Shown: positions 2,234 to 58,099, counted from the first letter of the stretch. The stretch is DNA of 64,000 bases from an uncultured Peptococcaceae bacterium (GCA_963768335.1 CAVYHR010000006.1:1-64000), one strand, 5' to 3'. Notes: a model not told the origin generated them from the letters alone. Made by a program: numbers and translations.

Positions 2234-4985
2234 TCATCCGGTCCTTGTCCGGCTTGCAGTTCCGGCCCAGACATGGCAGATCGGTTTGCCAAGCTTTTTC
2301 GCCAGATCGACTATCTCCCCGGTGCCGCCCCGTCCCTGGGCTTTCCTGCCGTCCCAGACCGCCACCATCACGTCGCTGTGCTCCACAATGTAGCGCCCGG
2401 ACCTCAGATAGGCCTCGCCCCGGGTCGGCGCGGGGGGCATGACGATGGTCTCGATGGCGCGCTCCGCCAGCCAGTAGCGAAACTCCTGCCTCAGCTCGGC
2501 CTCGTCGTAGTCCAGGCGGTGCTCGTCAGTGGGGCCAAAGTCTTTGATGTAGTCATCCAGAGGCACCGGCAGCACCACGATCAACCGGGCCGCCTCGTTC
2601 TTGAGCAGGGCACGGGCCACCAGCCGGTCGGCCCCGATAGCCAGGGGGGAGAAGACCGTCAGGTAGTGTTCCGGGAATTGGGACTCGATAAAGGTCACCG
2701 CTCTGGCGACTCCTGCCTCCAGTTCGGCCATCCGTTCCGGGTCGAGCCAGACATGGCCGGTGATACCCACCCTGAGCATCTCCCGGTGGCCCAGCCTGGT
2801 GAGGGCATCGAACTCCCCGGCATCGACGTGCATCTCTAAAATGTGGTCCGGGGGCAGACTGGACAGGGCGAAACTCCGCCTCTCATCAAGGTTGCTCATC
2901 CTGACCAGGGTCTCCATGGAGCGGGCCTCATAACGATAGCGGTTAACCTTCAGGAAGGCATCCAGCACCCCCCGGTCCACCTGAAACCGGTCGCCCTTCT
3001 TGATGTGCGGGGCTGATATCTCCAGGCAGCGGTTCAAGAGAAACGCCCGCCGGATGGGGAACATCCGGTCCTCGACAGTGTTGGGATGACCGTTCACGCC
3101 CTTCACGTCGATGTAGGCCCGCAGCCTGCTGATGAAATCGGGTTTTTTGGCAGCCGCCTTCTCCCCGCCGGAGCCGGCGCAGAACTCCTTGAAGGAGTGT
3201 CCGGTCGCCCCGGTGAAGACGTAGATGCCGCCGCCCAGCGGGTGCCCGCTGCCATGGTCGTTGAACTCGCCGTCCTGCATGGGCGCCAGAAAATCCGCAG
3301 CCAGCCCAGCGGGATGCCCTCGCAGGGTGCGTCGAACTCGTCCCAGAAGACCAGGGGCATCTTTCCCCTCAGGCGCCGGTCCCTGATCTGGTGGAAGGCC
3401 TGGGCGAGTTCCCGGGGCGATGTAAACTGGGAGAGGTTGAAGGTCAGTTGGGCGTTTTCGGCAATCCCCAGACCCCTGGCAATCTCCTTGACAACGAAGG
3501 ACTTGCCGGCCCCAGGGGGCCCGAACACCGCCACGCAGAGCGGTGTTTGCAGGCGCTGCTGCTTTAAATAGTCCGCCATAGCGTTGTAGACGCTGCGCAC
3601 GCCCTCGATCTCGCGCCGGTCGGCGCTGCGCCAGTTACCGACCATTTCCACGGGGACGTCGGGCAGGGCCACCCCGGGCCCCTCCTCCACGATCATCCGG
3701 GCGTACTCGAAAACCGCGTCCATGGTCCTGGAACCCCTGGCAACGCTTGCTTCCGTAATTTGCGCACCCGCCCGGCCCCTGTTCTCCTTGACCGCCTCTT
3801 CAAGGATGGACCACCCCGCCCGAGGCGGCGCCGCACCGGGTGCTCCCTGGGGGCGGCGCCCGCCTTCACTACGGGCCAGACCCCTGACATCCTGAAAAAT
3901 CCCCAGGTCCCATATTTTATCGGTCCTCTTGTCACCCGTTCCCTCGTGATAAGCCTTCACCAACCGCTGGCAGGGAAACTGGAGGCGCTGGCAGTCTCCT
4001 GCCGCCACCACCTCGCAACCATCCAGGTAAAGCAGCCGGGCCAGGGCGATACCGTCCCGGGTCGCCCTGGACCAGTCAACGCCCGGTGGCCAGTTGACCC
4101 AGGCCGCGGCCAGAGCCCCCAGCACACAGGTATTGGCACCCGGCGCCTGCCTCGTAAGATGCCGGGCAAAGTCGCCCTCCTGGCCGGAGCGGTCAAAGAT
4201 CAGAGTGTCATGTTCCTGCCCTACGATCACCGCCCCGCTCGCCCCGACGGTGACGATCACCTGATGGAAGAGCAGGTTGTTCTGATCGTCGACAAAGGGG
4301 CCCCTCGGGCTGCAGACGGCAGCGATTATGGCCTCAAACAGCCTCTCCCAGGAAAGGGAAACCCCGACCCGTTGCGGGCAGGCCCGCAGGTCTCCGATAG
4401 AGGTCAGGATGGTGGTCCTGGCCGCCAGGTCGATGGCATGAAGCCTGGCCAGCAAGGGGTGCTCCCGGTCGCCGCCAAACCGGGCGAGCTGGAGGATGAT
4501 CTGCTCCGGCTTTCTGCCGCACCGCGCCCGGCGGGCGCCCGCTTCGGGCGCGGACCCGGCACCGCCTCCTCCGCATCCGGGCTAAGCCCGGCCTGAATGT
4601 CCGCTCGAGGCTGGCGCCTCGGCTGAAAGCCCGCCGACACACCGGGAATGCGGAGCACAGGTGGGCGCGGCACCCGCCGCTCTCCTAAAACCTCCGGCCA
4701 CCCCTCCGTGACACTGCGAAATCCCAGGCCGCTGTCGGCGATCACCAGCAGGTCCGGCAGGCCGGCAGGCCGGCCCTCGACCTCAGCCAGCTCCGGCGGG
4801 ATCATCTCTTTTAAAAACTGCAGGATCAGCGCCGACCCACCGGCCCGGGACATCAGGCGCGCCACTGCTGCCGGACGATCGGGCAGCCGGGGGTGGCTTT
4901 CGCCTCTGCTGTAATGATCCTCGCCCTGGATGGTCAGCCAGTCGACGGTGGGGTCGCCGCATACCTGCACCAGAAGTTTCGCCAT
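2234..4985 (-). CDS. large multidomain NTPase: degenerate ribokinase/PfkB-like domain + AAA+ ATPase + C-terminal LOG/SLOG-like Rossmann domain; split over three frames in this assembly
   Basis: The three track ORFs 4404..4985, 3103..4455 and 2234..3280 are colinear and each continues the protein-like sequence of the previous one. PfkB-like motifs: AGGSALILQFL and APGANTCVLGALAAAW (GAGD degenerated to GANT). Walker A CVAVFGPPGAGKSF, Walker B LVFWDEFD, sensor-1-like IYVFTGAT. LOG-like: LTVFSPLAIGADRL...LIVVLPVP and GRGGTGEIVDLAKKLGKPI (PGGxGTxEE-like). The shift near 3290 looks like GGG->GG. The other break coincides with repeat copy A. Confidence 0.6.
4563..4668. repeat. P1-type palindromic repeat, copy A, inside the NTPase coding region
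   Basis: CCTCCTCCGCATCCGGGCT-AAGCCCGGCCTGAATG...GAAAGCCCGCCGACACACCGGGAATGCGGAGCACAG. The outer arms CTCCGCAT(C)CGGG / CCCGGGAATGCGGAG are reverse complements. The terminal 35 nt matches copy B. Confidence 0.6.
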
Positions 4986-6559: not shown

Positions 6560-8554
6560 TTATTTAGTATCCGGCGCCTGCTGCTGCCCCGGCAGTTGCA
6601 GGTTGCCCTTCAGCAACTTGGCCAGCACAGCGTTCACCAGGGCGCCCTGACTGTTTTCTCCCCCGTTAATCATGATCTCGGGTGTGATCTTGATTTGCTT
6701 CTCCGAGATCAATTTCATCAACTCGATACTAACGAGTCCTTCCGCTGTTACTGCTTGCTTGGTCAGTTCGTATGCCTGCGCCGTGTTCTTGCCGATCGAC
6801 AGAATTTTATCAGCCTCACCCTGGCCTTCAAGCCTGATTTTCTCGGCCTCGCCCTGGGCAATGGCGATGGTCTTTTGCTTGATCTGTTCTGCAACCTGCA
6901 CATCAATCTGCGCTGCCACCAGGGTTGCCTGCTTGTCAGCCTCGGCCCTGGTTTTTTCCATGGCGATACGCTTTTGTTCCGAATTCCTCTGCTCATCGAA
7001 CATTGACTGCCGCTGCAGGGCGAGCACCTTGTTGGTCTGGGTCTCCATCAGCTCCGGCGGCAGAACAATATTACTGATGAGCACCGATAATACCTCGACA
7101 TGGTACTTGCTCAGTTCGTTGACGGCACGCTTCAGTGCCTGATCCTGCTGCTCGTGGCGATCCTGCAGGAATTGCATCGCTGAAGCCGTGGATGCCTGAT
7201 TGCGGAATGATGAGTCGATCAGCGGGTGAATGACGTTGGTGATCAGGTTTTCTATGCTGCCAATACGACTCACGAGATAGGGCGATTGATCGGGCAGCAC
7301 CCTGATGACCACTTTCACGCCTACCTTAAGCGCAAAACCATCCTTGCTGTTCACGTTCAGCGAGTCGAACTTGGTATCCGCGGCATCATCCCAATCAATG
7401 GTGGTATTAGTGGTATTAATGATGATCGGCCTGTATGCCAAGAGGTTCAAATAAAAATTTCCCGGTCCGAGCACTGAACGCTGTATGCCCCGGTATCCTT
7501 CCGTAACTACATATTTTTCTGCATTAAAGTCGTCCGCTGCATCATCGTTCGCTTTGGGCTCCCCGGAAGACAACGGTATTGCCGGTTGTTTGCCGACGTT
7601 GGAGATAATCACCGCCACCTGACCCTGGTTGACAGTTAACGCATCAGATGTTTGCACTGAAAACATCAGGGGGTTTACATAAAATTTGCCTGGGGTGAGG
7701 ACATCTAATTGTGGGCCGCGCTGCCCACCGTTCATGAGAAACGCTGCGGCATTCTGGAACATATCGTGACCTTGAATGGTCTTGGCGATTAGCTCGTTTT
7801 CCGGCAGTTCTTCTCCATCATTTGCGGTGACAATGCCAACTTTGCCGGACGGAACATCGATAGCTGGAGTGATTTTCACATCGAACATCCGGAGATTTAT
7901 TCTGTACCGGCCCGGTCTCAAGATATCTAGTTGTGGCCCCTTCTGTCCGCCCTGCTCGAGGAAAGCCTCTCCGTCCTGGTAGTTGCTATGGCCAGGAACT
8001 GATTTAGCGTAGAGTCGCCCCGGATCCAGCGGTTGGCCGGCTGCTGCGTTCACGATGCCAATCGAGCCCGCAGGGATCGTTATCGCATCCATAACTGTGA
8101 TCTTGAAGAGATAGCTGTTGACTCTGTAGAGACCTGGCGGCAGTGTTTCTGTCTGGATGCCTTTCTGTCCCCCGTTTTTCAAGAAAGCCTCAGCATCCTG
8201 AAAGTGGTTATGACCGGTTACGACCCTGCCGAATATATCTCCCGGATCGAGGGGCCTCCCGTCTATCGATTCGATTATTCCCACCTGGTTTTCCCCGATC
8301 GCCACCAGTTCATCGATGCGGACGTTGAACAGGAACGGAAAAAAGAGATGAAGGCCCGGCCCCAAGATTCTTGCCTGAATTCCGATCTGCCCGGGCAGTG
8401 CGACGACCCTATCCGAAGGAAGCCTTGCTCCGAAAAGTTTTTGTTCTACTATCCCCACCTGTCGGCCGCCGATAATGACGATCATCCGTGCACTTGCGAG
8501 CAGTAATATGACAACAATCGCCACAATTACATAAAGAATCGTATCCATTGCCAT
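6560..8554 (-). CDS. flotillin-like SPFH/band-7 membrane protein (YqiK family) with N-terminal repeats
   Basis: N-terminal TM helix. Four ~80-aa repeats (GIVEQKLFG..., GIIESIDGRPLDPG..., GIVNAAAGQPLDPG..., GIVTANDGEELPE...). Then an SPFH core and a long Ala/Glu/Gln-rich coiled coil (EQKRIAMEKTRAEADKQATLVAAQIDVQVAEQ...). Confidence 0.85.
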   Translation of the reverse strand: MAMDTILYVIVAIVVILLLASARMIVIIGGRQVGIVEQKLFGARLPSDRVVALPGQIGIQARILGPGLHLFFPFLFNVRIDELVAIGENQVGIIESIDGRPLDPGDIFGRVVTGHNHFQDAEAFLKNGGQKGIQTETLPPGLYRVNSYLFKITVMDAITIPAGSIGIVNAAAGQPLDPGRLYAKSVPGHSNYQDGEAFLEQGGQKGPQLDILRPGRYRINLRMFDVKITPAIDVPSGKVGIVTANDGEELPENELIAKTIQGHDMFQNAAAFLMNGGQRGPQLDVLTPGKFYVNPLMFSVQTSDALTVNQGQVAVIISNVGKQPAIPLSSGEPKANDDAADDFNAEKYVVTEGYRGIQRSVLGPGNFYLNLLAYRPIIINTTNTTIDWDDAADTKFDSLNVNSKDGFALKVGVKVVIRVLPDQSPYLVSRIGSIENLITNVIHPLIDSSFRNQASTASAMQFLQDRHEQQDQALKRAVNELSKYHVEVLSVLISNIVLPPELMETQTNKVLALQRQSMFDEQRNSEQKRIAMEKTRAEADKQATLVAAQIDVQVAEQIKQKTIAIAQGEAEKIRLEGQGEADKILSIGKNTAQAYELTKQAVTAEGLVSIELMKLISEKQIKITPEIMINGGENSQGALVNAVLAKLLKGNLQLPGQQQAPDTK

Positions 8555-8951
8555 TCGTTCCTCCTCTTCATGCTTGACTGTTTAAGCCGCATACTGATTC
8601 TGCTTGAATAACGCCTGGCGCTATTTTTGTTTTCCAACTTCCGATCCAAGATGCCGATCCGCTCGCCCCCGACGATCACCACCATATGCGAGTTCAGGGA
8701 TGACCAGGAGCACCAGCGCCAACTCTATCCAAGATCAGCCTCCCTTCAATTTTTCTCCTTGCTCCCCACCTATCATTATCATAATTAGGCCCTTTTGGCT
8801 ATGCGCCGCAGGCAAGAAATAAGCCGCCTATCCTACAGCAAAACGCCGGAAAGCGACATTTAACATGCGTGTAATTGATTACCTGTTATTTTGGTGGTCA
8901 GATGCCAGAAGGCGGATGTCAGCACATTTTTCTCCTGCTTTTGGACATCTT

Positions 8952-9095
8952 GCCTCCTCCGCATTCAGGCCTTCGGCCTGGCCTGAACGCCGGCTCAAGG
9001 CTCCGCCTTGGCTCCTGTGCTCCGCATTCTTCAGGCTGGGCTGAAAGCCCAGATGCGGAGGAAAGCCCGCCGGCACACCGGGAATGCGGAGTACA
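8952..9095. repeat. P1-type palindromic repeat, copy B (two hairpin units plus the shared terminal module)
   Basis: GCCTCCTCCGCATTCAGGCC..., then TGTGCTCCGCATTCTTCAGGCTGGGCTGAAAGCCCAGATGCGGAGG, then AAAGCCCGCCGGCACACCGGGAATGCGGAGTACAT. It lies right after the HK stop codon, in its 3' UTR. Confidence 0.6.
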
Positions 9096-9103
9096 TGACC
9101 TCT

Positions 9104-10438
9104 TTACAGGGCCGGAAGGTTGATCCTGAACGTGCTGCCATGTCCGGGAGCGCTGTCGACTTCGATCCAGCCGCCATGCGCCCTGATGATGCCATAAGCC
9201 ACCGGCAAGCCCAGCCCGGTGCCCTGGCCCGGCCGCTTGGTGGTGTAAAAAGGCTCGAAGATGCGGGACCGGTTGGCCTCGTCTATGCCGGCGCCGGTGT
9301 CGGACACCGAGAGGCAAACAAATCTGCCGGGAACAACGCCCGCCTGTCCGGGACGGCCCGCGGCCACGTTTTCAGTCTTGATGGTGAGGGCGCCGCCATT
9401 CGGCATGGCATCCCGGGCATTCAGCACCAGGTTGGCGATCGCCTGGTCGAGGGCGGCGGTATCGGCGTTCACCTTCCATAGGTGGGGGCATGTCTCCAGC
9501 CTGATGTCAATGTTCCCGCCCAGCCACGCCCGGTCCACTGACGCTTTTGCGGGCGCATCCCGGCGCGGGCGCGGCAGCATCTTACCAATCTCATCCACTC
9601 TCTGATTCAGGTCTGTGGGAACCTTGAAGAGGGGTAACCGGCAACTGAACAGCAGCATCTGCCTGGTAAGATTGGCGCAGATCAGGGCGCTGTTCCTGAT
9701 CCTCGATAATGCCCGGTGCAGGGGATTATCCATGGAAAGCCCGGGCAGAAAGAGGTCGGTGCAGGCGCAGATCACCGTCAACTGGTTGTTCAACTCGTGG
9801 GCCATGCCTCCGGCCAGGCGGCCCACCGCCTCCATCTTCCCTGCCTGCAACCACCCGGCCTGAGACTGGAGTTCGTCTTCTCCCTGCCCGGGCGGGTTGA
9901 GCCTCTCCTCCTCTTTCCTGTGTCCGGAGATGTCACGAAGCGCCACCAGCACCGCCGGCTCCCCCTGGCAGGCGATCGTCCTGGCCTCGATCTCCACCCG
10001 TATCTCCTGCCCGGTCTTGGAAATGATCTTGACGGAAAAGGTCGACACCGACACTGCTCCACGACGGAGCGCCTCATACCCCTCTTTGACGATCTCCCGA
10101 AAATCCGGGGCTATGAGCCTCCACAGATCCACTTTTTTGAGTTCCCTCGCCGTATACCCGGCGAAGTCATGGGAGCACGGGTTGACCGGGCGCAGGCGGC
10201 TTCCCTGGATAATATAAATAAAAGCTGGCGACACTTCCGCCAGCAGCCTGTAATCGAGTAAGTCTTTCCTGAGGCCGGCCTCCCGTTTCCGGTGTTCCAG
10301 AATCTCCCTTTCCAATGCCTGGTTGACAGTTACCAGTTCCTGCAGGTGTTCCCTCAACTGCTCGGGGGAGTACTCACTGCCGAAACCGGTTTCTTCATGC
10401 ACCTGCCGGGGCATTGCATCCGGGACTCGCTCATCCAC
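9104..10438 (-). CDS. cytoplasmic PAS-domain sensor histidine kinase (HisKA + HATPase_c), no adjacent response regulator
   Basis: H-box MAHELNNQLTVI. N-box LVLNARDAM. G-boxes DTGAGI and GQGTGLGL. PAS-like region upstream. No TM segment. Confidence 0.85.
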   Translation of the reverse strand: MDERVPDAMPRQVHEETGFGSEYSPEQLREHLQELVTVNQALEREILEHRKREAGLRKDLLDYRLLAEVSPAFIYIIQGSRLRPVNPCSHDFAGYTARELKKVDLWRLIAPDFREIVKEGYEALRRGAVSVSTFSVKIISKTGQEIRVEIEARTIACQGEPAVLVALRDISGHRKEEERLNPPGQGEDELQSQAGWLQAGKMEAVGRLAGGMAHELNNQLTVICACTDLFLPGLSMDNPLHRALSRIRNSALICANLTRQMLLFSCRLPLFKVPTDLNQRVDEIGKMLPRPRRDAPAKASVDRAWLGGNIDIRLETCPHLWKVNADTAALDQAIANLVLNARDAMPNGGALTIKTENVAAGRPGQAGVVPGRFVCLSVSDTGAGIDEANRSRIFEPFYTTKRPGQGTGLGLPVAYGIIRAHGGWIEVDSAPGHGSTFRINLPAL

Positions 10439-12472: not shown

Positions 12473-12655
12473 GTTTAAGAGATTTCCCACGATGAGTAAC
12501 CCCCTTCGGCAGCCTCTTCAGCGGCAGTCTCGCCCACTTCTGGGGGGCGCCGGCCACCATCGCCACCGGGGCGGCTATCGGCCTGCTGTCCCTGATCACC
12601 ATGATCATCCGGGAACGCCGGCAGTGGTCGCCAAAGCCCGGCGACAGCCCGCGTT

Positions 12656-14164
12656 CTACCTCTGGGAGATCCACTCCCGGCAGGCGGCGGCAAATCGGGC
12701 GGCAGCCCGGGGGTTGGCGGCGAAATGGAAGTGAAAGTAGGAGGCCAGCAGGCTGCCGTCGGCATAGCCGTCGTTGCCGGTGCGACCGTCCCCCTTGCGG
12801 AAGGTGAACGCCCAAGGGAAGGGTTCCCTGGATGGAATGAACGAGGAGTAGTGAAACTCGTGGCCGCGCAGCGCATCCCCCTTCTGGCAGAGGATATTCC
12901 GGCCCTTGGCCTCGGCGGTGACGTAGCCCATGCCCACCAGGCGCCCGGCCATGCGGCAGCGGCCCGGCGCCAGGCCGACCATCGGGTGGTCGCGGCCGTC
13001 CAGGTCGCCGAGCGATTCGCAGAGGTACATGAAGCCCCCACACTCGGCGTAGATCGGCAGACCGGCAGCGTGTGCCCGGCGCAGGCTGTCCTTCATGCCC
13101 TCATTCCCGGCCAGTTCCCGGGCGAACACCTCGGGAAACCCGCCGCCGATCAGGACACCGGCGACGCCATCGGGAAGCGAGCGATCCTGCAGCGGACTGA
13201 AGGATACCAGTTCGATGCCGTGCCAGGATAACAGATCCAGCCCGTCCCGGTAATAGAAGTTGAAGGCAGCGTCCCAGGCCAGGGCCACCTTCACCAGGCG
13301 CTCACTCCCCACCGCAAACGCTACTGATGCGCCGGGCTGCTGGTTTTTATGACCGGTTCCCGCCGCTGTACTGGTACGGCGGCTGACCATCCGTTTGCTA
13401 GACAGCAAACGCTGGCGCCCGCGGTAGGCCCGAAAGATTGACGGCGCCGACTCTGCCACCGCCAGGATCGCTTCCAGGTCCACCTGCCGGACGACCTCCT
13501 GCGACAACTCCCTGAGCAGTGGGTCGGACTCCCGTTGCTCCGGCACCGGCACCAGCCCCAGGTGCCTTTCCGTCAGACGGGGCAGGCTCCCGTCCCGGAC
13601 CGCTCCCAGGACCGGTATCCCCGCCTCACAGAAACCCGCCTGCAGCATCTCCAGATGCCGTTCCCCGGTGTAGCGGTTGAGGATCACCCCGGCCAGCCGC
13701 AGGTCCGGGTCAAAGCTGCGGCAGCCCAAAAACTCCACCACGGCGCTGCGGGCCTGGCTGCGCACGTCCAGTACCAGCACCACCGGGCAGCCCAGGAGCT
13801 TGGCCACCTGGGCGCTGCTTGCCTGCTCTCCCTGGCCGCGCAGGCCGTCGAACAGGCCCATCACACCCTCGATCACTGCAATATCGGCGTCAGCCGCAGC
13901 CCTGCAGAAATATGACCGCACCTGGCCGCAGGAAAGCATCCAGGTATCCAGGTTGCGCGACCAGCGCCCCGTGACCGCGGTGTGGAAACTGGGATCGATA
14001 AAGTCCGGCCCCACCTTGAAGCCCTGCACCCGGCAACCCCGGCTGGCCAGCGCCCCCATCAGGCCGGTGGCGATACTGGTCTTGCCGGAACTGCTCCGGA
14101 CCGCGGCGATCATCACCCGCGGCGCCCGGCTCCCTCTAACGGTATTTCCAGCATCATCGCTCAT
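12656..14164 (-). CDS. cbiA: cobyrinate a,c-diamide synthase
   Basis: VMIAAVRSSSGKTSIATGLMGAL... P-loop N-domain. C-terminal GATase region (ECGGFMYL). Confidence 0.85.
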   Translation of the reverse strand: MSDDAGNTVRGSRAPRVMIAAVRSSSGKTSIATGLMGALASRGCRVQGFKVGPDFIDPSFHTAVTGRWSRNLDTWMLSCGQVRSYFCRAAADADIAVIEGVMGLFDGLRGQGEQASSAQVAKLLGCPVVLVLDVRSQARSAVVEFLGCRSFDPDLRLAGVILNRYTGERHLEMLQAGFCEAGIPVLGAVRDGSLPRLTERHLGLVPVPEQRESDPLLRELSQEVVRQVDLEAILAVAESAPSIFRAYRGRQRLLSSKRMVSRRTSTAAGTGHKNQQPGASVAFAVGSERLVKVALAWDAAFNFYYRDGLDLLSWHGIELVSFSPLQDRSLPDGVAGVLIGGGFPEVFARELAGNEGMKDSLRRAHAAGLPIYAECGGFMYLCESLGDLDGRDHPMVGLAPGRCRMAGRLVGMGYVTAEAKGRNILCQKGDALRGHEFHYSSFIPSREPFPWAFTFRKGDGRTGNDGYADGSLLASYFHFHFAANPRAAARFAAACREWISQR

Positions 14165-27026: not shown

Positions 27027-27226
27027 TTACTCTTCCTCCTCTATATCTCTCCTATCGAATGAGTTTGGCGCCACTGATAACGACAAGCTTCTCAACCTTG
27101 AAAACAGACGCAACTGTGTCTCCAGGAAAAAACTAACCCCAGCCATGAAGGCTGAGGTTCGTAAACACGTGCTTACTGAATCCCACCCCCTATCGTTCGT
27201 AGGGTAACACGGCGCGACTGGAACAG

Positions 27227-27385
27227 GCAGGTCTCCTGGCTCGGGTTCTTCGCCTGACCTGCCCTTCCCTGAAACGCTGTGCGCTCAAGTGGTAATGCAG
27301 TAGGCTCCCCCTCACAGTGGCGGGACCGCACCTTTCACCCAGCGCTCTGCTTCAAACCAGGTCCCCCTCATTGCATTATGTCAAC
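27227..27385 (-). ncRNA. cobalamin (AdoCbl) riboswitch in the cbiMN leader
   Basis: Minus-strand reading: ...GGTGAAAGGTGCGGTCCCGCCACTGTGAGGGGGAGC... (B12 box GCCACTG at plus 27311-27329), then ...CAGGGAAGGGCAGG...CCCGAGCCAGGAGACCTGCC. TTGACA lies about 20 nt upstream (plus 27379-27384). About 200 nt before the cbiM ATG. Confidence 0.75.
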
Positions 27386-27651
27386 TACTGGCGCGCGGCC
27401 GGGTGACACTGACAGCAACGCGGCGTGGAGCCTGAATCGCTGGGCTTCGGACTTCCCTTTTCAGCCCGTATTTAACGGGCCACCTGTTCCCCTTACGATG
27501 AAATTATCAAAGAACTTTTTTCAGTCCCCTTTTGCACAGAGACTACCACAGTCTGACAACGCCAACAACCACTGCCAATCCATAAAGGATTCGCCGTCAA
27601 GTTACATTCTCCTTCATGAAAAACAAAAACCGATCTTTTTTTTCTCATTCC

Positions 27652-28752
27652 TCAGCTCTTATTATATGCCTCGTCCACCGCTTTCAGACGCTCCAGCAGC
27701 AGCACGTTTCTCGCCCGGTCCTTGACTGCCACCCGGATGAAGCGGTCCCCCAGCCAGCCGAAGTTGCTGCAATCCCGCACCAGCACCCCCCGCCGGGCCA
27801 ACTGCTCCCACACGCCCGGAGCGGTGGCCGGCGGCTGCAGTTCCAGCAGCAGGAAGTTGGCCGCCGAGGGGTAGATCTGCCTGACCAGGCGCAATTCCGC
27901 CAGCGAGGACGCCAGGAAGCGGCGCTCCCGCCGCACCAGGGAGATCGTCCGGCGGGCATACTCCCCGGCCTCGAAGGCCACCCCGGCGGCGGCCTGGGCG
28001 AGGCCGTTGACGTGCCAGGGCGGCTGGCAACGGGACAACCGCGAGATCACCTCTGCATCCCCGATGCCGCAGCCGATCCGCAGGCCGGGCACACAAAAGA
28101 ACTTGGTCAGCGACTGCAGCACCAGGACACCGCCGGCGGCTGCAGCCTCTTTGATGCAGGTTAACTGCCTCCAACGGGGATGAAATAATAAAAAGGACTC
28201 GTCGACCACCAGAAAGATCCCCCGTGCCCGGCAATGCTCCAGGAAGGGCTGCGTGACCTCCGGCGGCGTCAGGCTGCCGGTGGGATTGTTGGGATTGCAG
28301 AGCCAGACCAGGTCGACTCCCCGGGTTGCTCTGATCAACTGAGGCAGGCCCGGCAGGAAACCCTGCCGGGGTGGGAGGTGGAAGTGCTTCACCGCAGAGA
28401 CGCCCCAGAGGCGGCAGGCGATCTCGTACTCCTTGAAGGTCGGGCCCGGGATCAGGACATTGCGGGGGCGCAGGACCTGCGCCAGCAGGTAGATCAGCTC
28501 CACCGCCCCGTTGGCGGCGATAACCTGCTCCGGGATGACACCGTAGAAGGCGGCGGCGGCTGAGCGCAGCGCCGCGCAATCAGGCTCCGGGTATGAGGAA
28601 GCCAGGGCCATGGATTCCTGCAGCACCCCGGCGATCCCGGCTGGCGGCCCCAGGGGATTGGTGTTGACGCTGAAATCCACGAAGGCCCCAGGGTCAATGC
28701 CAAACCTGGCTGCCGCCGATACAACGTTCCCGCCGTGCTGGTGCTTGTCCAA
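27652..28752 (-). CDS. cobD: threonine-phosphate decarboxylase (class I/II aminotransferase fold)
   Basis: N-terminal HGGNV motif, PLP-aminotransferase-like (NPNNPTG). Confidence 0.8.
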   Translation of the reverse strand: MDKHQHGGNVVSAAARFGIDPGAFVDFSVNTNPLGPPAGIAGVLQESMALASSYPEPDCAALRSAAAAFYGVIPEQVIAANGAVELIYLLAQVLRPRNVLIPGPTFKEYEIACRLWGVSAVKHFHLPPRQGFLPGLPQLIRATRGVDLVWLCNPNNPTGSLTPPEVTQPFLEHCRARGIFLVVDESFLLFHPRWRQLTCIKEAAAAGGVLVLQSLTKFFCVPGLRIGCGIGDAEVISRLSRCQPPWHVNGLAQAAAGVAFEAGEYARRTISLVRRERRFLASSLAELRLVRQIYPSAANFLLLELQPPATAPGVWEQLARRGVLVRDCSNFGWLGDRFIRVAVKDRARNVLLLERLKAVDEAYNKS

Positions 28753-29755
28753 CGCAAACCTTCCCTCCGGTTCTGATCTTGCCCGGGTAGCGCGGCCCCC
28801 CGCCGGTAAGGCGCAGGGAATAGTGGTCGCTGATCTCCGGAAATCGGGTACGCAAGCCCCGAATCAGTTGTTCATCAGCCTCGCGGCCGGGTGGCAGCAG
28901 TATCCCGACCACGGTGCCGCTGTGGGCTACATTGACCCCATAGGCGCCCCGGGCCAGGACATGATCGATGATCGCCTCCAGGTGAGGCTTGGGCAGGATG
29001 CGCTGGTTGGCGAGAGCGCTCATGGTGGCCCCCTCCCCCAGCTTGCCGGGATCCTGGCGCTGAAATCCATCCCGCACCAGTTGCAGAGCCTGTCTGATGG
29101 CAGGTTCATTGGCCGCGTTCAACTCGGCCAGATCGGAGCGTCGATGGAACTCCAGCGTGTCCACCGCTCCGCCGAAATCTAGCGCCAGCAGCCCCAGGGG
29201 GAACGGTTCCCCGATCCGCTCGAATATCCGGCCGTCAACGTGGTCGATCAGGACGATCCCCGCGGAGAAGGTGCCGTCCGAGGGCTCGATGGAGAGGGCG
29301 ATCTCCGCCACCGCCTCCGGAGTGAGCCGCCGGTTCAGGGCGACAGCCACGGCATAGCAGGCGGCAGACAGGTCGGCGGTGCTGCTGCCCATACCCTTGC
29401 CGATGGGCAGGCTGGAGGCCACGTCGATGACCGCCCCCAGGTTGGAGTAGCCCTCCCGGTCCAGAGCCTTGCGCACTGCCTGGGCGGTCTTGATGCGCTC
29501 CGCGGGAAACACGATCCGCCCGGCCCCCGGCGACGCATCTTCATTCATGACGGGAGCATCAGGTCTAACAGCGTCAAGAGGACTGCCGGCCTGCACGCTT
29601 GCAGTGCCGGGCACAGACCGGCCGGCGCCGGTGGTGACGGTCACCCTGCTGAACCAGTTCACCGGGCAGGTGACCAGAAAGTTGGTACCCGATAAAGTGC
29701 CCTGCACCAGCTCTCCGCAGGTGCCAGGCACCAGGGCGGTACCTCGCAAGATCAT
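28694..29755 (-). CDS. GHMP-family kinase, PduX-like L-threonine kinase (supplies Thr-P for the aminopropanol linker)
   Basis: PIGKGMGSSTADLSAA (GHMP motif). Sits between cobS and cobD. Overlaps cobD by 58 nt. Confidence 0.65.
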   Translation of the reverse strand: MILRGTALVPGTCGELVQGTLSGTNFLVTCPVNWFSRVTVTTGAGRSVPGTASVQAGSPLDAVRPDAPVMNEDASPGAGRIVFPAERIKTAQAVRKALDREGYSNLGAVIDVASSLPIGKGMGSSTADLSAACYAVAVALNRRLTPEAVAEIALSIEPSDGTFSAGIVLIDHVDGRIFERIGEPFPLGLLALDFGGAVDTLEFHRRSDLAELNAANEPAIRQALQLVRDGFQRQDPGKLGEGATMSALANQRILPKPHLEAIIDHVLARGAYGVNVAHSGTVVGILLPPGREADEQLIRGLRTRFPEISDHYSLRLTGGGPRYPGKIRTGGKVCVGQAPARRERCIGGSQVWH

Positions 29756-30597
29756 TGTAAACGGCCCCCCAGCAGGACTCCAATCAACAGCACGACTATC
29801 TCCGTCAGTTCGCTCAGCGCTCCGTAGGTATCCCCGGTCAATCCTCCGAGCAGGCGGGAGAGCCGGCCGGCAGTGAGATAGAATAGCAGGCCGGCCGCGA
29901 TAAAGATGCCGACTCCGGTCAATTTTAACAGAGCCACCAGCAGAAATAAAGAGATCCCGGTGGTGATCATCAGCATCTTATAATTGCCGTAGGTGGAGAA
30001 CAGCGATCCGATGCCCTGTTTGCGAGCGTAGGGAAACAGCACCTGCGCCCAGACCTGGGCCTGCCTCCCCAGCACCGGGGCCGCAAGCAGGTAGGGCAGC
30101 AGGTTGAAGCTGATCTGCGTGTACAGGCTGTACTTGAGGATCAGGATCAGGACGACGGCGATCACTCCGAAGGCGCCCACGTGGCTGTCCTTCATGAAAG
30201 CCAGGCGCTCCTCCCGGCTTCGTCCGCCGTACACCCCGTCGGTGGTGTCCATCAGGCCGTCCAGGTGCAGACCGCCGGTGAGGAAGACAGTCACGCAGAG
30301 GAGCAGGGCCGCCAGCACCGGGGCCGCCAGGAAACCCCGCAGCAGGTACCACAGGAGGCCGGTGATGATCCCCAGCAGCAGCCCAATCAGCGGAAACCAG
30401 TAGATACTGCGGCGGAAATCGTGTTCATCGAAGCGGCTCCACCTGCCGGGGACCGGAATGCGGGTCAGAAAGGCCAGGGCGCATAACAAAGACCGCACCA
30501 ATCGCATCTTCAAATCACTCCTCGAATCACCACACCGCGACCGCCGGACGCCGCCCACTGGCAGCCAGGGGTATCGGATAACTTCAGGCGCATTCAC
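29752..30597 (-). CDS. cobS: adenosylcobinamide-GDP ribazoletransferase (cobalamin synthase)
   Basis: LCALAFLTRIPVP...YWFPLIGLLLG, polytopic. Likely true start at the internal Met (MRLVRSLL, about 30507). The track N-terminus reads into repeat C. Confidence 0.85.
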   Translation of the reverse strand: MNAPEVIRYPWLPVGGVRRSRCGDSRSDLKMRLVRSLLCALAFLTRIPVPGRWSRFDEHDFRRSIYWFPLIGLLLGIITGLLWYLLRGFLAAPVLAALLLCVTVFLTGGLHLDGLMDTTDGVYGGRSREERLAFMKDSHVGAFGVIAVVLILILKYSLYTQISFNLLPYLLAAPVLGRQAQVWAQVLFPYARKQGIGSLFSTYGNYKMLMITTGISLFLLVALLKLTGVGIFIAAGLLFYLTAGRLSRLLGGLTGDTYGALSELTEIVVLLIGVLLGGRLQ

Positions 30598-30603
30598 ACT
30601 TCC

Positions 30604-30783
30604 ACAGATGACTACCCGCTCTAATGCCCCCGCTTCCTCCGCATCCGGGCTTACAGCCCGGCCTGAAGAATGCGGAGTACATCCGAAGCGGTGGAATAAG
30701 AGCGGCTACATCACTGTATTAACTGGCTCTAAGCGTCAGTGGGGGAAAACAACCCCCCACTGAAGCCAAGACCCAGTTGAAAG
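30604..30783. repeat. P2-type ~135-nt multi-hairpin repeat (copy C) carrying a nested P1 hairpin (30641..30684)
   Basis: Shares CACAGATGACTACCCGCTCTAATGCCCCCGCTTCCTCC...GAAGCGGTGGAATAAGAGCGGCTACATCACTGTATTAACTGGCTCTAAGC-GTCAGTGGGGG...CCCCCCACTGAAGCCAAGACCCAGTTGAA with copy D. Carries an extra insert GCATCCGGGCTTACAGCCCGGCCTGAAGAATGCGGAGTACATCC. Confidence 0.65.
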
Positions 30784-30795
30784 GCCGGCAAGCGC

Positions 30796-31785
30796 TCAAC
30801 ATCGAGCAAGAAGCACCCATCCAACGGTAGCCAGGACCAGAAAGATGGCCACCGTGCCGTAGAGCATCCTGATCGCCGCCTCGATGTGGCCCGGCGCCAG
30901 GGGTTCTTTCGGGTCGCCCAACCGCGCCCGCAGCGATGGCATACCCTGGTAGTAGTTCAGTCCGCCCAGTTGCACCCCCAGGGCGCCGGCCATGGCAGCC
31001 TCCGGATACCCACTGTTGGGGCTGGGGTGTTTATGCGCGTCCCGCCAGGGTAGCATCCAGGCCCGGCGCCAGTCGAGGCCGAGCAGCAGGGCGGCGCCTA
31101 CCATTAGCAGCATGGTCAGCCGGGCCGGCAAAAAATTGACCACGTCGTCCAGCCGGGCTGCGACCATTCCGAAATCCTGGTAGCGCTCGCTCCGGTAGCC
31201 GACCATGGAATCAAGGGTGTTGATCGCCCGGTAGGCGCAGGCCAGGGCGGGGCCGCCCAGCAAGAAATAGAACAGCGGAGCGATCACTCCGTCGGAAATG
31301 TTCTCGGCCACCGTCTCTACCGTCGCCCTGGCGATCTCCGCCGGATCCAGCCGGTCGGTGTCCCGCCCGACGATCAAACCCACCCGCCGCCGGGCCTCCG
31401 CCAGGTCACCCCGGCGCAGCAGGCCGAGAGTCTCCCGGGCCGCCCGGTCGAGGCTGCGGATGGAGATGGTCGCCCAGAGGAAAAGGGCGCTCACCACCAA
31501 GTATATGTAGGCCCACAGTTGTGGATGATCAGCGGACAGGGACAGCCTGTGCAGCCAGGTCAGACACAGATAGACCAGCAGCCACACCGGCAGCACCGTT
31601 CCCAGCACGAGCAGGGCGCCCGCCACCCGCTTCGCCGGCAGCGAGGCGGCGCCATGTCCGCCGGCGCGACCGTACAGCAGGCGCTCCCAGGCAGAGATCA
31701 GCCTGCCGATCAGAGCGACCGGGTGATAGTCGACCCTGGGGTCTCCGATGAGAAGATCCAGGAGCACCGCCAGCAGCAGCACCAC
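30796..31785 (-). CDS. cbiB: adenosylcobinamide-phosphate synthase
   Basis: MVLLLAVLLDLLIGDP...HPVALIGRLIS... CobD/CbiB family membrane protein. Confidence 0.9.
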   Translation of the reverse strand: MVLLLAVLLDLLIGDPRVDYHPVALIGRLISAWERLLYGRAGGHGAASLPAKRVAGALLVLGTVLPVWLLVYLCLTWLHRLSLSADHPQLWAYIYLVVSALFLWATISIRSLDRAARETLGLLRRGDLAEARRRVGLIVGRDTDRLDPAEIARATVETVAENISDGVIAPLFYFLLGGPALACAYRAINTLDSMVGYRSERYQDFGMVAARLDDVVNFLPARLTMLLMVGAALLLGLDWRRAWMLPWRDAHKHPSPNSGYPEAAMAGALGVQLGGLNYYQGMPSLRARLGDPKEPLAPGHIEAAIRMLYGTVAIFLVLATVGWVLLARC

Positions 31786-37969: not shown

Positions 37970-38165
37970 TCAAAACTGTCTTGTTTTGTAAATTCCAATT
38001 CAACCCCCTCCTGCTCCCTTTTGGCCACTCCTTTTCTCTTGTACCGGCTTCAACAAGCAATCTGCAAAACCATGGTTCGACATTTTTCAAGCAAAATATT
38101 TTTCCAGGTTGCCTTTTGCCAGTTGACGTAATATACTGATTCTGACAACTGAATATAACATTCCT

Positions 38166-38320
38166 TCGTTAGGTGAGGCTTCTGCGTAGACAGACGCCAC
38201 TGCCCGGAAACGTCGAAAGACGCCAAATGGGTCAACAGGTATTACCGGCTTAAGGTTCTACCTAATGTGGCTGAGGGACAATCTCTAAGCTGCGCACGTG
38301 TCAAAACTCGACGAGTGGGG
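38166..38320 (+). ncRNA. M-box (ykoK-type) Mg2+ riboswitch
   Basis: TTCGTTAGGTGAGGCTTCTGCGTAGACAGACGCCACTGCCCGGAAACGTCGAAAGACGCCAAATGGGTCAACAG... Near-identical to the B. subtilis mgtE leader core (TTCGTTAGGTGAGGCT...GACGCTAATGGGTCAACAG). Confidence 0.85.
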
Positions 38321-38347
38321 GGATGAGGTATTGGCATTTATGAGACT

Positions 38348-41373: not shown

Positions 41374-41676
41374 TCCTCTCCGGATTTTCGGAACCGTTTC
41401 CGCTTTTTCGGTGCTTTTACTGTCTTTAACAGACACTACGCCGGCAGGACAACCCGGTTAACCGCGCTGTCTATGGCAACGGAGAAACCGAGGTACACCA
41501 CCGCCCCGGCAGCATCCGGCAGGCAGGCTGCTGAGCATCCGGCGGCTGCTGCCTACAACCGGAGCCGGTACCCGCCCGCCGGTTCCCGATTGTGGCATGA
41601 AATATGCATGTTTATATAGGCAGGAAAACAAAAACGAGGCCGCCGGAAGGGGCCGGAATGAGGGGAGAGGGCGAAC

Positions 41677-41850
41677 ATGGCAGTGGCACTGAGGACTTTC
41701 GAGGAGCTTGAGCATCGGGACGCAGAGGTGAAGAGGCCGGGATTGAAACTCGAAAAACGGGCCGAGACAGGCAGGGTAGAGTACGAATTCCCCTATGACG
41801 ACCTCTACCAGATGTACGACTACATCACCAAAGAACTGGGTATCAAGTAA
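41677..41850 (+). CDS. small hypothetical protein (57 aa), tandem paralogue 1
   Basis: RBS AGGGGAGAGGG then ATG. MAVALRTFEELEHRDAEVKRPGLKLEKRAETGRVEYEFPYDDLYQMYDYITKELGIK. Below the ORF-track cutoff. The whole unit, including the RBS, is tandemly duplicated. Confidence 0.5.
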   Translation: MAVALRTFEELEHRDAEVKRPGLKLEKRAETGRVEYEFPYDDLYQMYDYITKELGIK

Positions 41851-41922
41851 CAACAACCGGGTAGAGATCTTAAAAAAAACAGGCCGCCGGAAGCGGGGCC
41901 GGAATGAGGGGAGAGGGCGAAC

Positions 41923-42096
41923 ATGGCAGTGGCACTGAGGACTTTCGAGGAGCCTGAGCATCGGGACGCAGAGATCAAGATACCGGTTTGGACACAGCAA
42001 GAGCGGATCGAGAGAGGCAAACTCGAGTACGAATTCCCTTATGACGACCTCTACCAGATGTACGACTACATCACCCAAGAACTGGGCATCAGGTAG
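41923..42096 (+). CDS. small hypothetical protein (57 aa), tandem paralogue 2
   Basis: MAVALRTFEEPEHRDAEIKIPVWTQQERIERGKLEYEFPYDDLYQMYDYITQELGIR. Same RBS and leader as paralogue 1. Confidence 0.5.
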   Translation: MAVALRTFEEPEHRDAEIKIPVWTQQERIERGKLEYEFPYDDLYQMYDYITQELGIR

Positions 42097-42142
42097 GATA
42101 TGAAAGCAACGATAAAAAGCAAAGCCTCTGTCGACTGCTAGC

Positions 42143-42178
42143 AGGCCGGGCGGGAAACCAGCACCCGGCCTTTTCATT
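42143..42178. terminator. hairpin + T-tract between the convergent small genes and the LarE-like gene (possibly bidirectional)
   Basis: CAGGCCGGGCGGGAAACCAGCACCCGGCC + TTTTCATT. Confidence 0.5.
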
Positions 42179-42203
42179 AGCAACTGTTGTGCACCCCCGG
42201 CAT

Positions 42204-44286: not shown

Positions 44287-44354
44287 TGTGTTATCTCACC
44301 GTCCAGGATTATCCGTTCCGGGTGGCTCTAGAAAGGTTGCAGCCTCTCATCGCC

Positions 44355-44490
44355 ACAGATGACTACCCGCTCTAATGCCCCCGCTTCCTCCGAAGCGGTG
44401 GGATAAGAGCGGCTACGTCACTGTATTAACTGGCTCTAAGCTTCAGTGGGGGCAAGCAATCCCCCACTTAAGCCAAGACCCAGTTGAATC
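44355..44490. repeat. P2-type ~135-nt multi-hairpin repeat (copy D), flanked by diverged ~45-bp direct repeats
   Basis: About 88% identical to copy C but without the nested P1 insert. Flanks 44305-44354 and 44497-44545 both read ATTATCCG(T/C)TCCGGGTGG...GGTTGCAGC. The right copy encodes the FdhD C-terminus. Confidence 0.65.
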
Positions 44491-56432: not shown

Positions 56433-57737
56433 TTACTGGGTCAAAGCAGGGTTCTTTACCTTAGTGCCGGGAGGCGCAAACTGCTGCGGCAACCCGATCT
56501 CCTCCAGGGTCTCCACCGTCAACAGCACCCCGACGTGGTCCATGTCCACGTTGATCACCTTCGACTGACGATCGGTCACCACCGCCCCGGCGGGAAGCTG
56601 ATCGGCCAGGATTGCCTGAGCCCGCTGAACTGCCAGGCGCAGGGCCTCTTCAAAACTGCGCCGCAGTAAAAAGCGCCTGATCTCCTCCGCTCTTATTGTA
56701 ACAAATTCGACAGGCAAAGTTATATTCCTCCACTGTGGCAATTTCCTTTTGTTCTCTGTCAGATCGTACAGGAGGTAGGGAATGGTGGGCGGGCCCTTGA
56801 TGATTATTTCCTTGTTTGCCAGTCTGATGCTGACGATGCTGGTGACGCGTCCGGTCTTCTGATCCACCAGTTCCTCCAGGGGCGCCTCGGCGTAACAGCG
56901 GTACCAGACTCGCGCCCGGACAATCCCCTGGGCCTCCACGTAGCGCAGCTCATACTTTGGCGCCGGAGGCTGTGGAGCGCCCTCAGTTTTAGGTGGGGGC
57001 GGCGGGGCGATGATCCCCGAGATCAGGATCTGACCGGCACGGACCACGTCCCCCTCCTTGACCTGGGGCGAGCCAGACAGCACCAGGATGTCTTTGATCA
57101 CCCCGTCCTTGACAGCCACAATATTGGCGGCGCCCAGGGAGGGCTGCGGTACGACCCTCTCGGTGATCTTGATGCTCACCTGCGTCCCCCGGAAGTCTAT
57201 CTCGGCAAAGGCGATCCCCGGCATTTCCCGCATCAGGCGGTCCGCCACATCCTTGCCGTTAACCAGGAAGCGCAGGTTTCCCGGGTACAGTCCGGCGGAG
57301 GCGGCCGCCCGGAGGACCTGGTTCGGGTCGAGTTGCCTGGTTCCGACCACATCGACAGTCCAGATCAGTGAAGAGAGCAGGTACAGCAGCAGGCAAAAGG
57401 TGATCGCCCCACCCACCAGCATCCGGCGGCGCCGCAGACGCTGCAGGATAAAGGGCAACCCGCCTCTGGCCCGGATGCGCACCCTCACGTTGGTGCGCCG
57501 TGCAATATGCCGCAGCGCCACAAAAGATCGCGCTGGCGCCTTGACCAGGATGGTCTCCTGGTTTACCCGGTTCACATCCCAGAGCGCCACGCCCCTCATG
57601 GTCGCCAGGTTGATAAACCGCTCCGGGTGCTCCCCCCTGACCGCCAGGACCAGAAAACCCAGCATGTAGGCCCAAAAACTACGTATCAGCACGGTGTTGG
57701 CACTCCCCCACTTGAAAGGTGAGATGTGGGATCTCAC
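56433..57737 (-). CDS. yqfD: sporulation protein YqfD (stage IV)
   Basis: YqfD family. The track N-terminus reads into repeat E. Probable start at the internal Met MLGFLVLAV. Confidence 0.8.
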   Translation of the reverse strand: MRSHISPFKWGSANTVLIRSFWAYMLGFLVLAVRGEHPERFINLATMRGVALWDVNRVNQETILVKAPARSFVALRHIARRTNVRVRIRARGGLPFILQRLRRRRMLVGGAITFCLLLYLLSSLIWTVDVVGTRQLDPNQVLRAAASAGLYPGNLRFLVNGKDVADRLMREMPGIAFAEIDFRGTQVSIKITERVVPQPSLGAANIVAVKDGVIKDILVLSGSPQVKEGDVVRAGQILISGIIAPPPPPKTEGAPQPPAPKYELRYVEAQGIVRARVWYRCYAEAPLEELVDQKTGRVTSIVSIRLANKEIIIKGPPTIPYLLYDLTENKRKLPQWRNITLPVEFVTIRAEEIRRFLLRRSFEEALRLAVQRAQAILADQLPAGAVVTDRQSKVINVDMDHVGVLLTVETLEEIGLPQQFAPPGTKVKNPALTQ

Positions 57738-57790
57738 CTCCTCCGCATCCGGGCTACGCCCGGTCCGAAGAATGCGGAGTACATCGCTAC
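57716..57790. repeat. P1-type palindromic repeat copy E with adjacent GTGAGATGTGGGATCTCAC palindrome
   Basis: GGTGAGATGTGGGATCTCACCTCCTCCGCATCCGGGCTACGCCCGGTCCGAAGAATGCGGAGTACATCGC. In the yqfC-yqfD spacer. Confidence 0.6.
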
Positions 57791-57793
57791 TCG

Positions 57794-58099
57794 CTACTCA
57801 CCCACCAGGTCAATGCTACGGATCTTACCATCCACGGCGATCTCCTCCGGAAAGATCGTCCGCAGGGCCAGCCCGGTTCCGGTCACCCGCAGTTCTCCGA
57901 TGCCGGTGCCGATCCTGACCCTCTCCGTGGTATACTCGATAATGCCCCGGTGGTTCTCCACGATCAACTGGATGTCGCCGAGCACGGTGATCCTGGGCAG
58001 GCCCATAACCAGTTCCTTGGGCAGTTCCAGGAAGTGGGCAAGGAAATACTCGAGGTTCTTCATTTCCCTGGGCACAACAAAACCCACCTTTCCCTCCAT
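57794..58099 (-). CDS. yqfC: sporulation protein YqfC
   Basis: About 100-aa YqfC family (LPRITVLGDIQLIVENHRGIIEY...). Confidence 0.8.
   Translation of the reverse strand: MEGKVGFVVPREMKNLEYFLAHFLELPKELVMGLPRITVLGDIQLIVENHRGIIEYTTERVRIGTGIGELRVTGTGLALRTIFPEEIAVDGKIRSIDLVGE

Follow-up and report, generated by a model that had tools for sequence, protein, structure and literature searches.

A new family of REP-like miniature palindromic mobile elements in an uncultured peat lineage of Bacillota

Short hairpin repeats in the DNA of an uncultured Peptococcaceae bacterium constitute a new family of REP-like miniature palindromic mobile elements, carried by an uncultured peat lineage of Bacillota (Thermacetogeniaceae/Peptococcaceae). 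The family comprises a short unit, here termed S, and a longer form, termed L. Insertion is precise and occurs directly 3′ of the dinucleotide TC, with the target not being duplicated, and the preferred target is an unpaired TC within the loop of a hairpin that was already there. With moderate confidence, S and L are interpreted as non-autonomous elements whose movement as single-stranded DNA (ssDNA) would be carried out by a trans-acting HUH/Y1 nuclease. REP-type repeats are best known from Proteobacteria, their mode of movement is still debated, and, to our knowledge, no enzyme at all is known for some REP classes. No description of the present family was found in the literature on Thermacetogeniaceae or on RAYT/REP in Firmicutes.

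An earlier note on this DNA—the window, that is, the whole 64-kb stretch analysed—had described modular hairpin repeats of REP or BOX type in at least five copies, leaving their mobility and function open, and this reading is upheld. The exact boundaries of the elements, the TC preference, the hairpin-loop preference, the in-frame gene insertions, and the sister subfamilies with compensatory arms are new. The arm sequence CTCCGCAT occurs exactly 10 times in the window against ~3.5 expected, a count reached by 1 of 100 shuffles, and all 10 occurrences fall into five inverted pairs with partners no more than 150 nt apart. The family also survived formal alignment, an nhmmer profile built from related copies matching the three complete S units of the window with E-values between 5e-15 and 6e-17 (Table 1). 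The tail proposed as a shared feature, GAATGCGGAG(T/C)ACA(T/G), was recovered in copies A, B outer, C, and D, and also in B inner on the reverse strand.

Table 1. Copies of the hairpin family, P2 host repeats, and the interrupted gene in the window (1-based coordinates)
Feature	Description	Coordinates	Strand	Basis
Copy A	L form, 93 nt, CTCCGCAT...GAATGCGGAGCACAGG	4569-4661	+	sequence
Copy B outer	L form with B inner nested in it, 141 nt in total	8957-9097	+	sequence, A/B alignment
Copy B inner	S unit, 47 nt, CACAGG subfamily, reverse, nested in B outer	9014-9060	-	alignment of A with B
Copy C	S unit, TACA subfamily	30637-30683	+	sequence, comparison of filled and empty P2
Copy D	S unit	57741-57785	+	sequence
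P2 host repeat, filled	two long hairpins, the first with an S unit in its loop	30602-30781	+	alignment
P2 host repeat, empty	loop CCTCCG; in-window empty-site reference	44353-44488	+	alignment
AAA ATPase gene	interrupted by copy A	2234-4985	-	ORF frames, homologues

The S unit (45-47 nt) has the order CTCCGCAT-CCGGGCT-loop-AGCCCGG-CCTGAAGA-ATGCGGAG-YACA(KG), in which an outer stem of 8 bp (CTCCGCAT/ATGCGGAG) and an inner stem of 6-7 bp (CCGGGCT/AGCCCGG) are separated by a conserved, asymmetric internal loop of 8 nt (CCTGAAGA), and in which the 3′ tail, TACA(T) or CACAGG, is short and unpaired. On the reverse strand, GT[AG]C (GTAC or GTGC) stands directly at the foot of the hairpin. The L form (93 nt) is an S unit with additional hairpin modules in the internal loop. 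Folded as ssDNA, S forms one hairpin of -16 kcal/mol (z = -5.6), and copy B outer gives z = -4.7. Among 50 distinct units, 98.6% of the cells of S are paired, and compensatory double changes, which preserve both stems, were found at four base pairs (19 cells), a result equalled by 0 of 500 shuffles and by no slid register. Furthermore, sister subfamilies, in S and L forms alike, carry outer arms that are different yet complementary (CGCCGCAT/ATGCGGCG and GCCCGT/ACGGGC), and a further subfamily has AGCT/AACT tails.

The modular combination of units noted earlier is explained by nested insertion. More detailed comparison of copies A and B showed B to be an A-type element carrying a clean 47-nt reverse S insert without duplication, the nesting site in the L form reading ...GGGCTTTC^AGCC... 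(^ marks the point of insertion here and below), and filled and empty states of the B-inner type were found again at many loci. Copy C, likewise, sits in the apical loop of a P2 repeat between cobD (30796-31785, -) and cobS (29752-30597, -). As for the remaining settings in the window, copy B outer lies 7 nt past the stop codon (9104-9106) of a histidine kinase gene (9104-10438, -) and upstream of a Band7 gene (6560-8554, -), and copy D occupies the spacer between yqfC/YabP (57794-58099, -) and yqfD (56433-57737, -). P2 is a separate repeat of ~135 nt with two long hairpins (z = -8.5 for the empty copy), present in more than 50 copies in loci L001-L199; it is itself modular, its right half being exchangeable and its 3′ arm often hosting, flanked by GGTGGG and TAAGAGC, a GCCCGTAT-type element. 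The window also contains a 201-nt segment, unrelated to the hairpin family, that is tandemly repeated with 88% identity and 246-nt spacing (41649-41849 and 41895-42095) within an ORF at 41458-42183 (-).

Small, modular, hairpin-forming intergenic repeats are also known from other Firmicutes, namely BOX, RUP, and SPRITE in Streptococcus and bcr1 in the Bacillus cereus group, and S resembles them in this respect. The modularity of BOX, however, is a tandem composition of A, B, and C boxes, whereas that of S is nested insertion, and RUP and bcr1 are MITEs of IS origin that carry duplications, which S lacks.

To define the junctions, the flanks of every copy were compared with those of all other loci. 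Among the matches listed, 123 of the 133 distinct flank pairs (92%) have TC as the 5′ flank, against a background of 6.5%; in the window, for example, TC at 4567-4568 directly precedes copy A. Because TC is found in the empty sites too, it belongs to the target. In the TACA subfamily, the insert into the standard CTCCG loop of P2 is 45 nt long and ends ...GGAGTACA (at position 30681 for the core of copy C), the empty P2 of the window being a 6-nt loop variant. Further junctions of this subfamily are GCCTC^TACC in unique DNA (L041 vs. L127), CAGCAC-TTTC^A-GTGCTG (L144 vs. L152), GGTGCCC-TC^T-GGGCGC (L055 vs. L168; L158 vs. L042), C^TCCG and CTC^TG in the P2 loop, TTCTTC^AGG within a reverse S unit (internal loop), and GGCTC^TAAG in the second hairpin of P2; those of the CACAGG subfamily are CTTTC^AGCC, CGCC^T(C/T)GG, and CCTC^CGCAT. 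About 7 of 11 distinct insertion sites are unpaired loops of host hairpins, pointing to single-stranded targets. The preference for TC and for hairpin loops thus accounts for the accumulation of copies inside other repeats—P2 and their own relatives—and in intergenic spacers. For copies of the CCAGGCC type, the flanks are alike across loci, with …CTTGCCTC before the element and AC(C/T)TC… after it (window 8940-8956 and 9098-9103; L060 and L024), which means either that the ends of this subfamily reach further than drawn here or that an additional host repeat is involved.

The perfect inverted termini of 8-10 bp, CTCCGCAT(TC)/(GA)ATGCGGAG, the small size, the high copy number, and the largely intergenic location would also suit a conventional MITE—that is, a deletion derivative of a DDE-type IS, with its arms serving as terminal inverted repeats and the transposase of its parent moving it in double-stranded form. 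However, no target-site duplication was present at about 10 distinct exact filled/empty sites, and the ends are asymmetric, with the YACA(KG) tail following the right arm and nothing preceding the left arm. In addition, 45 nt is far under the usual MITE size, neither an IS with such termini nor a multi-copy coding segment turned up in 1.6 Mb, and insertion into hairpin loops suggests single-stranded targets. We regard an origin as a MITE as very unlikely. The filled and empty P2 of the window, taken as a pair on their own, could equally reflect a deletion by microhomology, their 44-nt difference being flanked by a 4-nt direct repeat (TCCG).

Comparison with orthologous loci showed that the presence and content of elements vary among close relatives (85-95% identity) at the same spacers. 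The yqfC-yqfD spacer contains S alone in the window, whereas in L070 the S unit sits within a truncated P2; downstream of the histidine kinase gene, the spacer holds L plus S in the window and a composite of P2 and S in L065; and L051 carries an S′ element together with P2 at a point occupied in the window by ~60 nt of unrelated sequence (27654-27714). The last spacer adjoins a cobalamin riboswitch (27209-27502, -; 83 bits).

The family extends beyond the window. In contigs from one genome per species, a strict pattern scan found at least 79 loci, and a metagenome scan at least 120, yielding at least 222 strict copies spread over 196 of the 200 sequence sources; viral contigs that were scanned contained no match. 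The sources are at least five MAGs together with JGI and ENA metagenome contigs, from lineages of ~50% and ~58-61% GC. Those of the genome scan include the Thermacetogeniaceae MAG SPRUCE_237, the Peptococcaceae MAGs bog_1190, palsa_1188, and MFD01231, and two contigs binned as Dehalococcoidia. The window itself (61% GC) shares 85-95% identity with parts of SPRUCE_237 and palsa_1188 and 98.7% with the ENA contig L200. The two Dehalococcoidia-labelled loci, L003 and L014 (JBEKCL01, SPRUCE_159), have 48.5% GC and contain P2 and S. Since L003 is ~90% identical to contig L036 of the Peptococcaceae MAG MFD01231, its label is, judging from this identity, probably a binning error; L014 has no such match.

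That all sources are MAGs or metagenome assemblies, with two loci from a Dehalococcoidia-labelled bin, might suggest an artefact of assembly or binning, or a chance similarity. The same element with the same junctions is nevertheless present in independent NCBI, JGI, and ENA assemblies, the E-values reach down to 6e-17, and the label of L003 probably does not describe its host, so that the likelihood of an artefact is negligible.

Within genes, the element can be carried as part of the reading frame, and 4 of the 6 reading frames of S are open. The earlier placement of one copy (4563-4668) inside a coding sequence was confirmed for copy A, the gene encoding an AAA ATPase. The two ORFs flanking copy A (4985 to 4671, and from ~4512) jointly match single AAA ATPases of ~930 aa over 90% of the fused query, and the strain represented by L200 encodes a protein, P0001, in which the identical element is read through in frame. 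At the position of copy A, element-free homologues have 5-8 residues versus 52 in P0001 (~47 aa fewer), the element-encoded peptide including ...PGVSAGFQPRRQPRADIQAGLSPDAEE.... In the window, the gene is split into ORFs 4404-4985, 3103-4455, and 2234-3280. The first split occurs because one C is missing relative to L200, a 1-nt indel 30 nt downstream of copy A, and a second frameshift lies near 3200-3280; this breakage represents either decay of the gene or assembly indels. The AAA ATPases of this lineage, in both the window and L200, also lack a ~60-aa segment of their homologues.

Other proteins contain element-encoded segments in frame as well. A FakA-like protein has a linker ~85 aa longer than that of PDB 7w7h, the interdomain linker of PurH is ~80 aa longer than that of 9ou7, and further segments are found in a CheA linker, within SpoIID, and in an ORF that fuses rsmD with coaD. 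Among the recurrent peptides that the element encodes are ...SPDAEE..., ...PPHPGLQPGLK..., and ...SSASGLTARPERMRSTG..., and gene models are altered in relatives at L002 (938-2200, -), L064, L050, L020, and L035. Rickettsia palindromic elements (cited in PMC3733652 and PMC10969869) are likewise palindromic and inserted in frame into genes, adding loop or linker peptide with the frame being kept; the counterparts here are the AAA ATPase, CheA, FakA-like, PurH, and SpoIID proteins. However, the Rickettsia elements are ~100-150 bp long, belong to Alphaproteobacteria, and are presumably unrelated in sequence, whereas S is mostly intergenic with ~7% of copies in genes; the comparison concerns the mode of insertion.

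With respect to gene context, of 94 full-length copies in the window and the genome loci listed, 51 are intergenic by the gene calls, 20 stand at the end of a locus, and 23 overlap a called ORF; most of these last ORFs are spurious or 5′-extended, leaving 5-7 genuine in-gene copies. In the genome-scan loci listed, copies between tandem genes are oriented 14 in sense and 12 in antisense, and 13 copies lie between convergent and 12 between divergent genes. Outside P2, orientation relative to GC skew is 19:20. Copies embedded in P2, unlike those outside it, have a bias of 27:11 (p = 0.014), suggesting a strand preference or function of P2.

The functions offered earlier for the hairpins, namely terminator and mRNA stabiliser, find little favour in these data. 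A reading as an intrinsic terminator fails because the hairpin is followed by YACAKG without a T-run and no terminator-like call was made at any copy, and the lack of any orientation bias relative to genes makes a strand-specific RNA role, such as that of a stabiliser, unlikely. A search of the whole window with Rfam 15 at gathering thresholds matched only the M-box and cobalamin riboswitches, both elsewhere in the window, and the E-value mode on two element regions gave just weak, microRNA-like chance matches. The M-box (Mg) riboswitch is at 38158-38326 (+), with 143 bits.

More generally, the copies might be kept by selection as a structured element of use to the host, either in RNA (terminator, stabiliser, processing site, or translational regulator) or as a nucleoid or topoisomerase site in DNA. 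Such a role would agree with a hairpin conserved through compensatory changes, with copies in the operon spacers cobD-cobS and yqfC-yqfD and one shortly past a stop codon, and with the identity of the orthologous copies C and L051, whose flanks are 93% identical; secondary roles of this kind are known for E. coli REPs (PMC3479197). Nevertheless, orientation relative to transcription is unbiased, T-runs, terminator-like calls, and Rfam matches are lacking at the copies, and copies lie within coding regions, other repeats, and one another. Their presence or absence also varies among close relatives, and a DNA-binding role, although conceivable, would leave the precise insertion junctions unexplained. 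Selection for a host function is thus an improbable explanation of the family.

Among known systems, the REP/BIME/REPIN repeats and their RAYT (TnpA-REP) nucleases (PMC3733652, PMC6006769, PMC3479197, PMC3116915) are the closest in kind. Like S, REPs are short imperfect palindromes with a bulge or internal loop and a conserved unpaired tag at one foot of the hairpin; the canonical tag, GT[AG]G, is located 5′ at the foot (PMC6006769, PMC3733652) and is shared at three of four positions by GT[AG]C of S on the reverse strand. Also in common are hundreds of mostly extragenic copies, the lack of target duplication, subfamilies within one genome, and insertion inside other small palindromes and, at times, into ORF linkers with the frame kept, both of which are documented for REPs (PMC3733652). 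The differences are that the fourth base of the tag is C in S and G in REPs, that the unit is 45-47 nt in S compared with 20-40 in REPs, and that S is mostly single, tandem-nested, or reverse-nested without regular head-to-head pairs, in contrast to the inverted doublets of REPINs and BIMEs. Moreover, the junction of S is TC^N, whereas E. coli TnpA-REP cuts C^T (PMC3479197), no RAYT was found for S in 1.6 Mb, and the host of S is an uncultured lineage of Bacillota, whereas Firmicutes are unmentioned in the REP survey.

The IS200/IS605 elements (IS608, ISDra2) and the gene-less PATEs provide a second comparison. They have hairpin-defined ends, insert 3′ of a short specific sequence without target duplication, and prefer ssDNA, all as in S. 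In contrast to the single hairpin of S and its 2-nt target (TC), however, they have two distinct subterminal hairpins (LE and RE) and a target of 4-5 nt; the strong lagging-strand bias of the IS608 type is absent for S, and neither TnpA nor TnpB was found for S in the sampled loci.

The preferred interpretation, movement of ssDNA by an HUH/Y1 enzyme, rests on the combination of hairpin, tag at its foot, short target, and lack of duplication, on the closeness of the reverse-strand tag GT[AG]C to the canonical GT[AG]G (PMC6006769), and on the documented occurrence of REPs inside other palindromes and ORF linkers (PMC3733652). S would be moved as ssDNA, being cut and rejoined in trans by an HUH/tyrosine nuclease (Y1, RAYT- or IS200-like) that may be encoded once elsewhere and that would recognise the hairpin together with the tag at its foot. 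The effects on host genes, that is, RNA hairpins in operon spacers and added peptide segments, would then be by-products.

For such an enzyme, the queries were IS608 TnpA and E. coli TnpA-REP (verified to be 100% identical to PDB 2a6m and 4er8) and an IS200 TnpA sequence. Searches with phmmer gave nothing below E = 0.1 in the window and 199 loci (1.59 Mb), divergent RAYTs being poorly detectable in this way, and a 5-sequence Y1 HMM and an HUH...Y regular expression had no match in the 1.59 Mb, including 955 kb of metagenome loci. The earlier statement that the window contains no transposase or RAYT gene is borne out by these searches; a RAYT- or IS200-like tnpA, which it had been suggested to seek elsewhere, was likewise not found in the 1.59 Mb around ~200 copy-bearing loci. 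No REPtron—a RAYT flanked by repeats—was found among the 199 loci, whose 1.59 Mb represent part of each genome, and internal repeats of IS type (350-4000 nt) did not turn up in the 1.6 Mb sampled around copies. Wherever ORFs lie between inverted copies, they are housekeeping genes (nrdR, hrcA, aspS, rplT/infC, mnmE/yidC, radA, accD/A, pyk, mreB, and others). Multi-copy ORF clusters proved to be paralogues of ABC, HlyD, Amt, OYE, Nramp, and beta-lactamase proteins, and an insertion of ~1.3 kb in L065 (2948-4315) relative to window 12475-12678 turned out to hold a cobT-like gene of 390 aa. This segment of L065, the SPRUCE_237 relative, starts with a degenerate S-like end, CCGCCGCATCCGGGAATGCAGCGCACAGG, from which the inner hairpin is deleted.

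These results also bear on the alternative that the element is mobile without a Y1 or RAYT enzyme, through another HUH protein (Y2/IS91-like or Rep-like), a hairpin-targeting DEDD recombinase of the IS110/IS1111 type, a reverse transcriptase, or an undescribed enzyme, or that it is a fossil left behind after the loss of its enzyme. In line with this alternative, the 1.6 Mb of copy-bearing DNA yielded no Y1 gene, tag and cut site are both unlike those of E. coli REP/RAYT (PMC3479197), a lagging-strand bias is absent, and CGTC-type REPs have no dedicated transposase known (PMC3733652), so that a mechanism other than RAYT is conceivable here as well. On the other hand, no candidate gene of those classes stands beside the copies in the sampled part of each genome, and the hairpin, foot tag, short ssDNA target, and lack of duplication are the signature of Y1 HUH enzymes (PMC6006769). 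Mobility of this sort is a possibility to be taken seriously, although short of probable. A more specific proposal—that a REP-like family is spreading without RAYT, some other activity cutting ssDNA at 5′-TC^N in hairpin loops and pasting in the 45-nt hairpin—is more speculative and, on balance, doubtful.

The family offers unusually clean natural evidence, with exact ends, many filled/empty pairs, a two-base target, a loop preference, and self-nesting, in an uncultured and ecologically relevant peat lineage of Bacillota. For genome annotation, the repeats break or extend gene calls, as seen in the split AAA ATPase, the rsmD-coaD fusion, and the larger CheA, PurH, and FakA linkers; they probably also fragment MAG assemblies, and their use as strain markers is conceivable. 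Should the mobilising enzyme not be a RAYT, the family would indicate a new route of ssDNA transposition. Specifically, if spread without RAYT is true, GT[AG]C would be a third tag class beside GTAG and CGTC, the family would represent, in Bacillota, a form of miniature transposition aimed at hairpin loops, and its in-frame peptide insertions could steadily supply variation in protein linkers.
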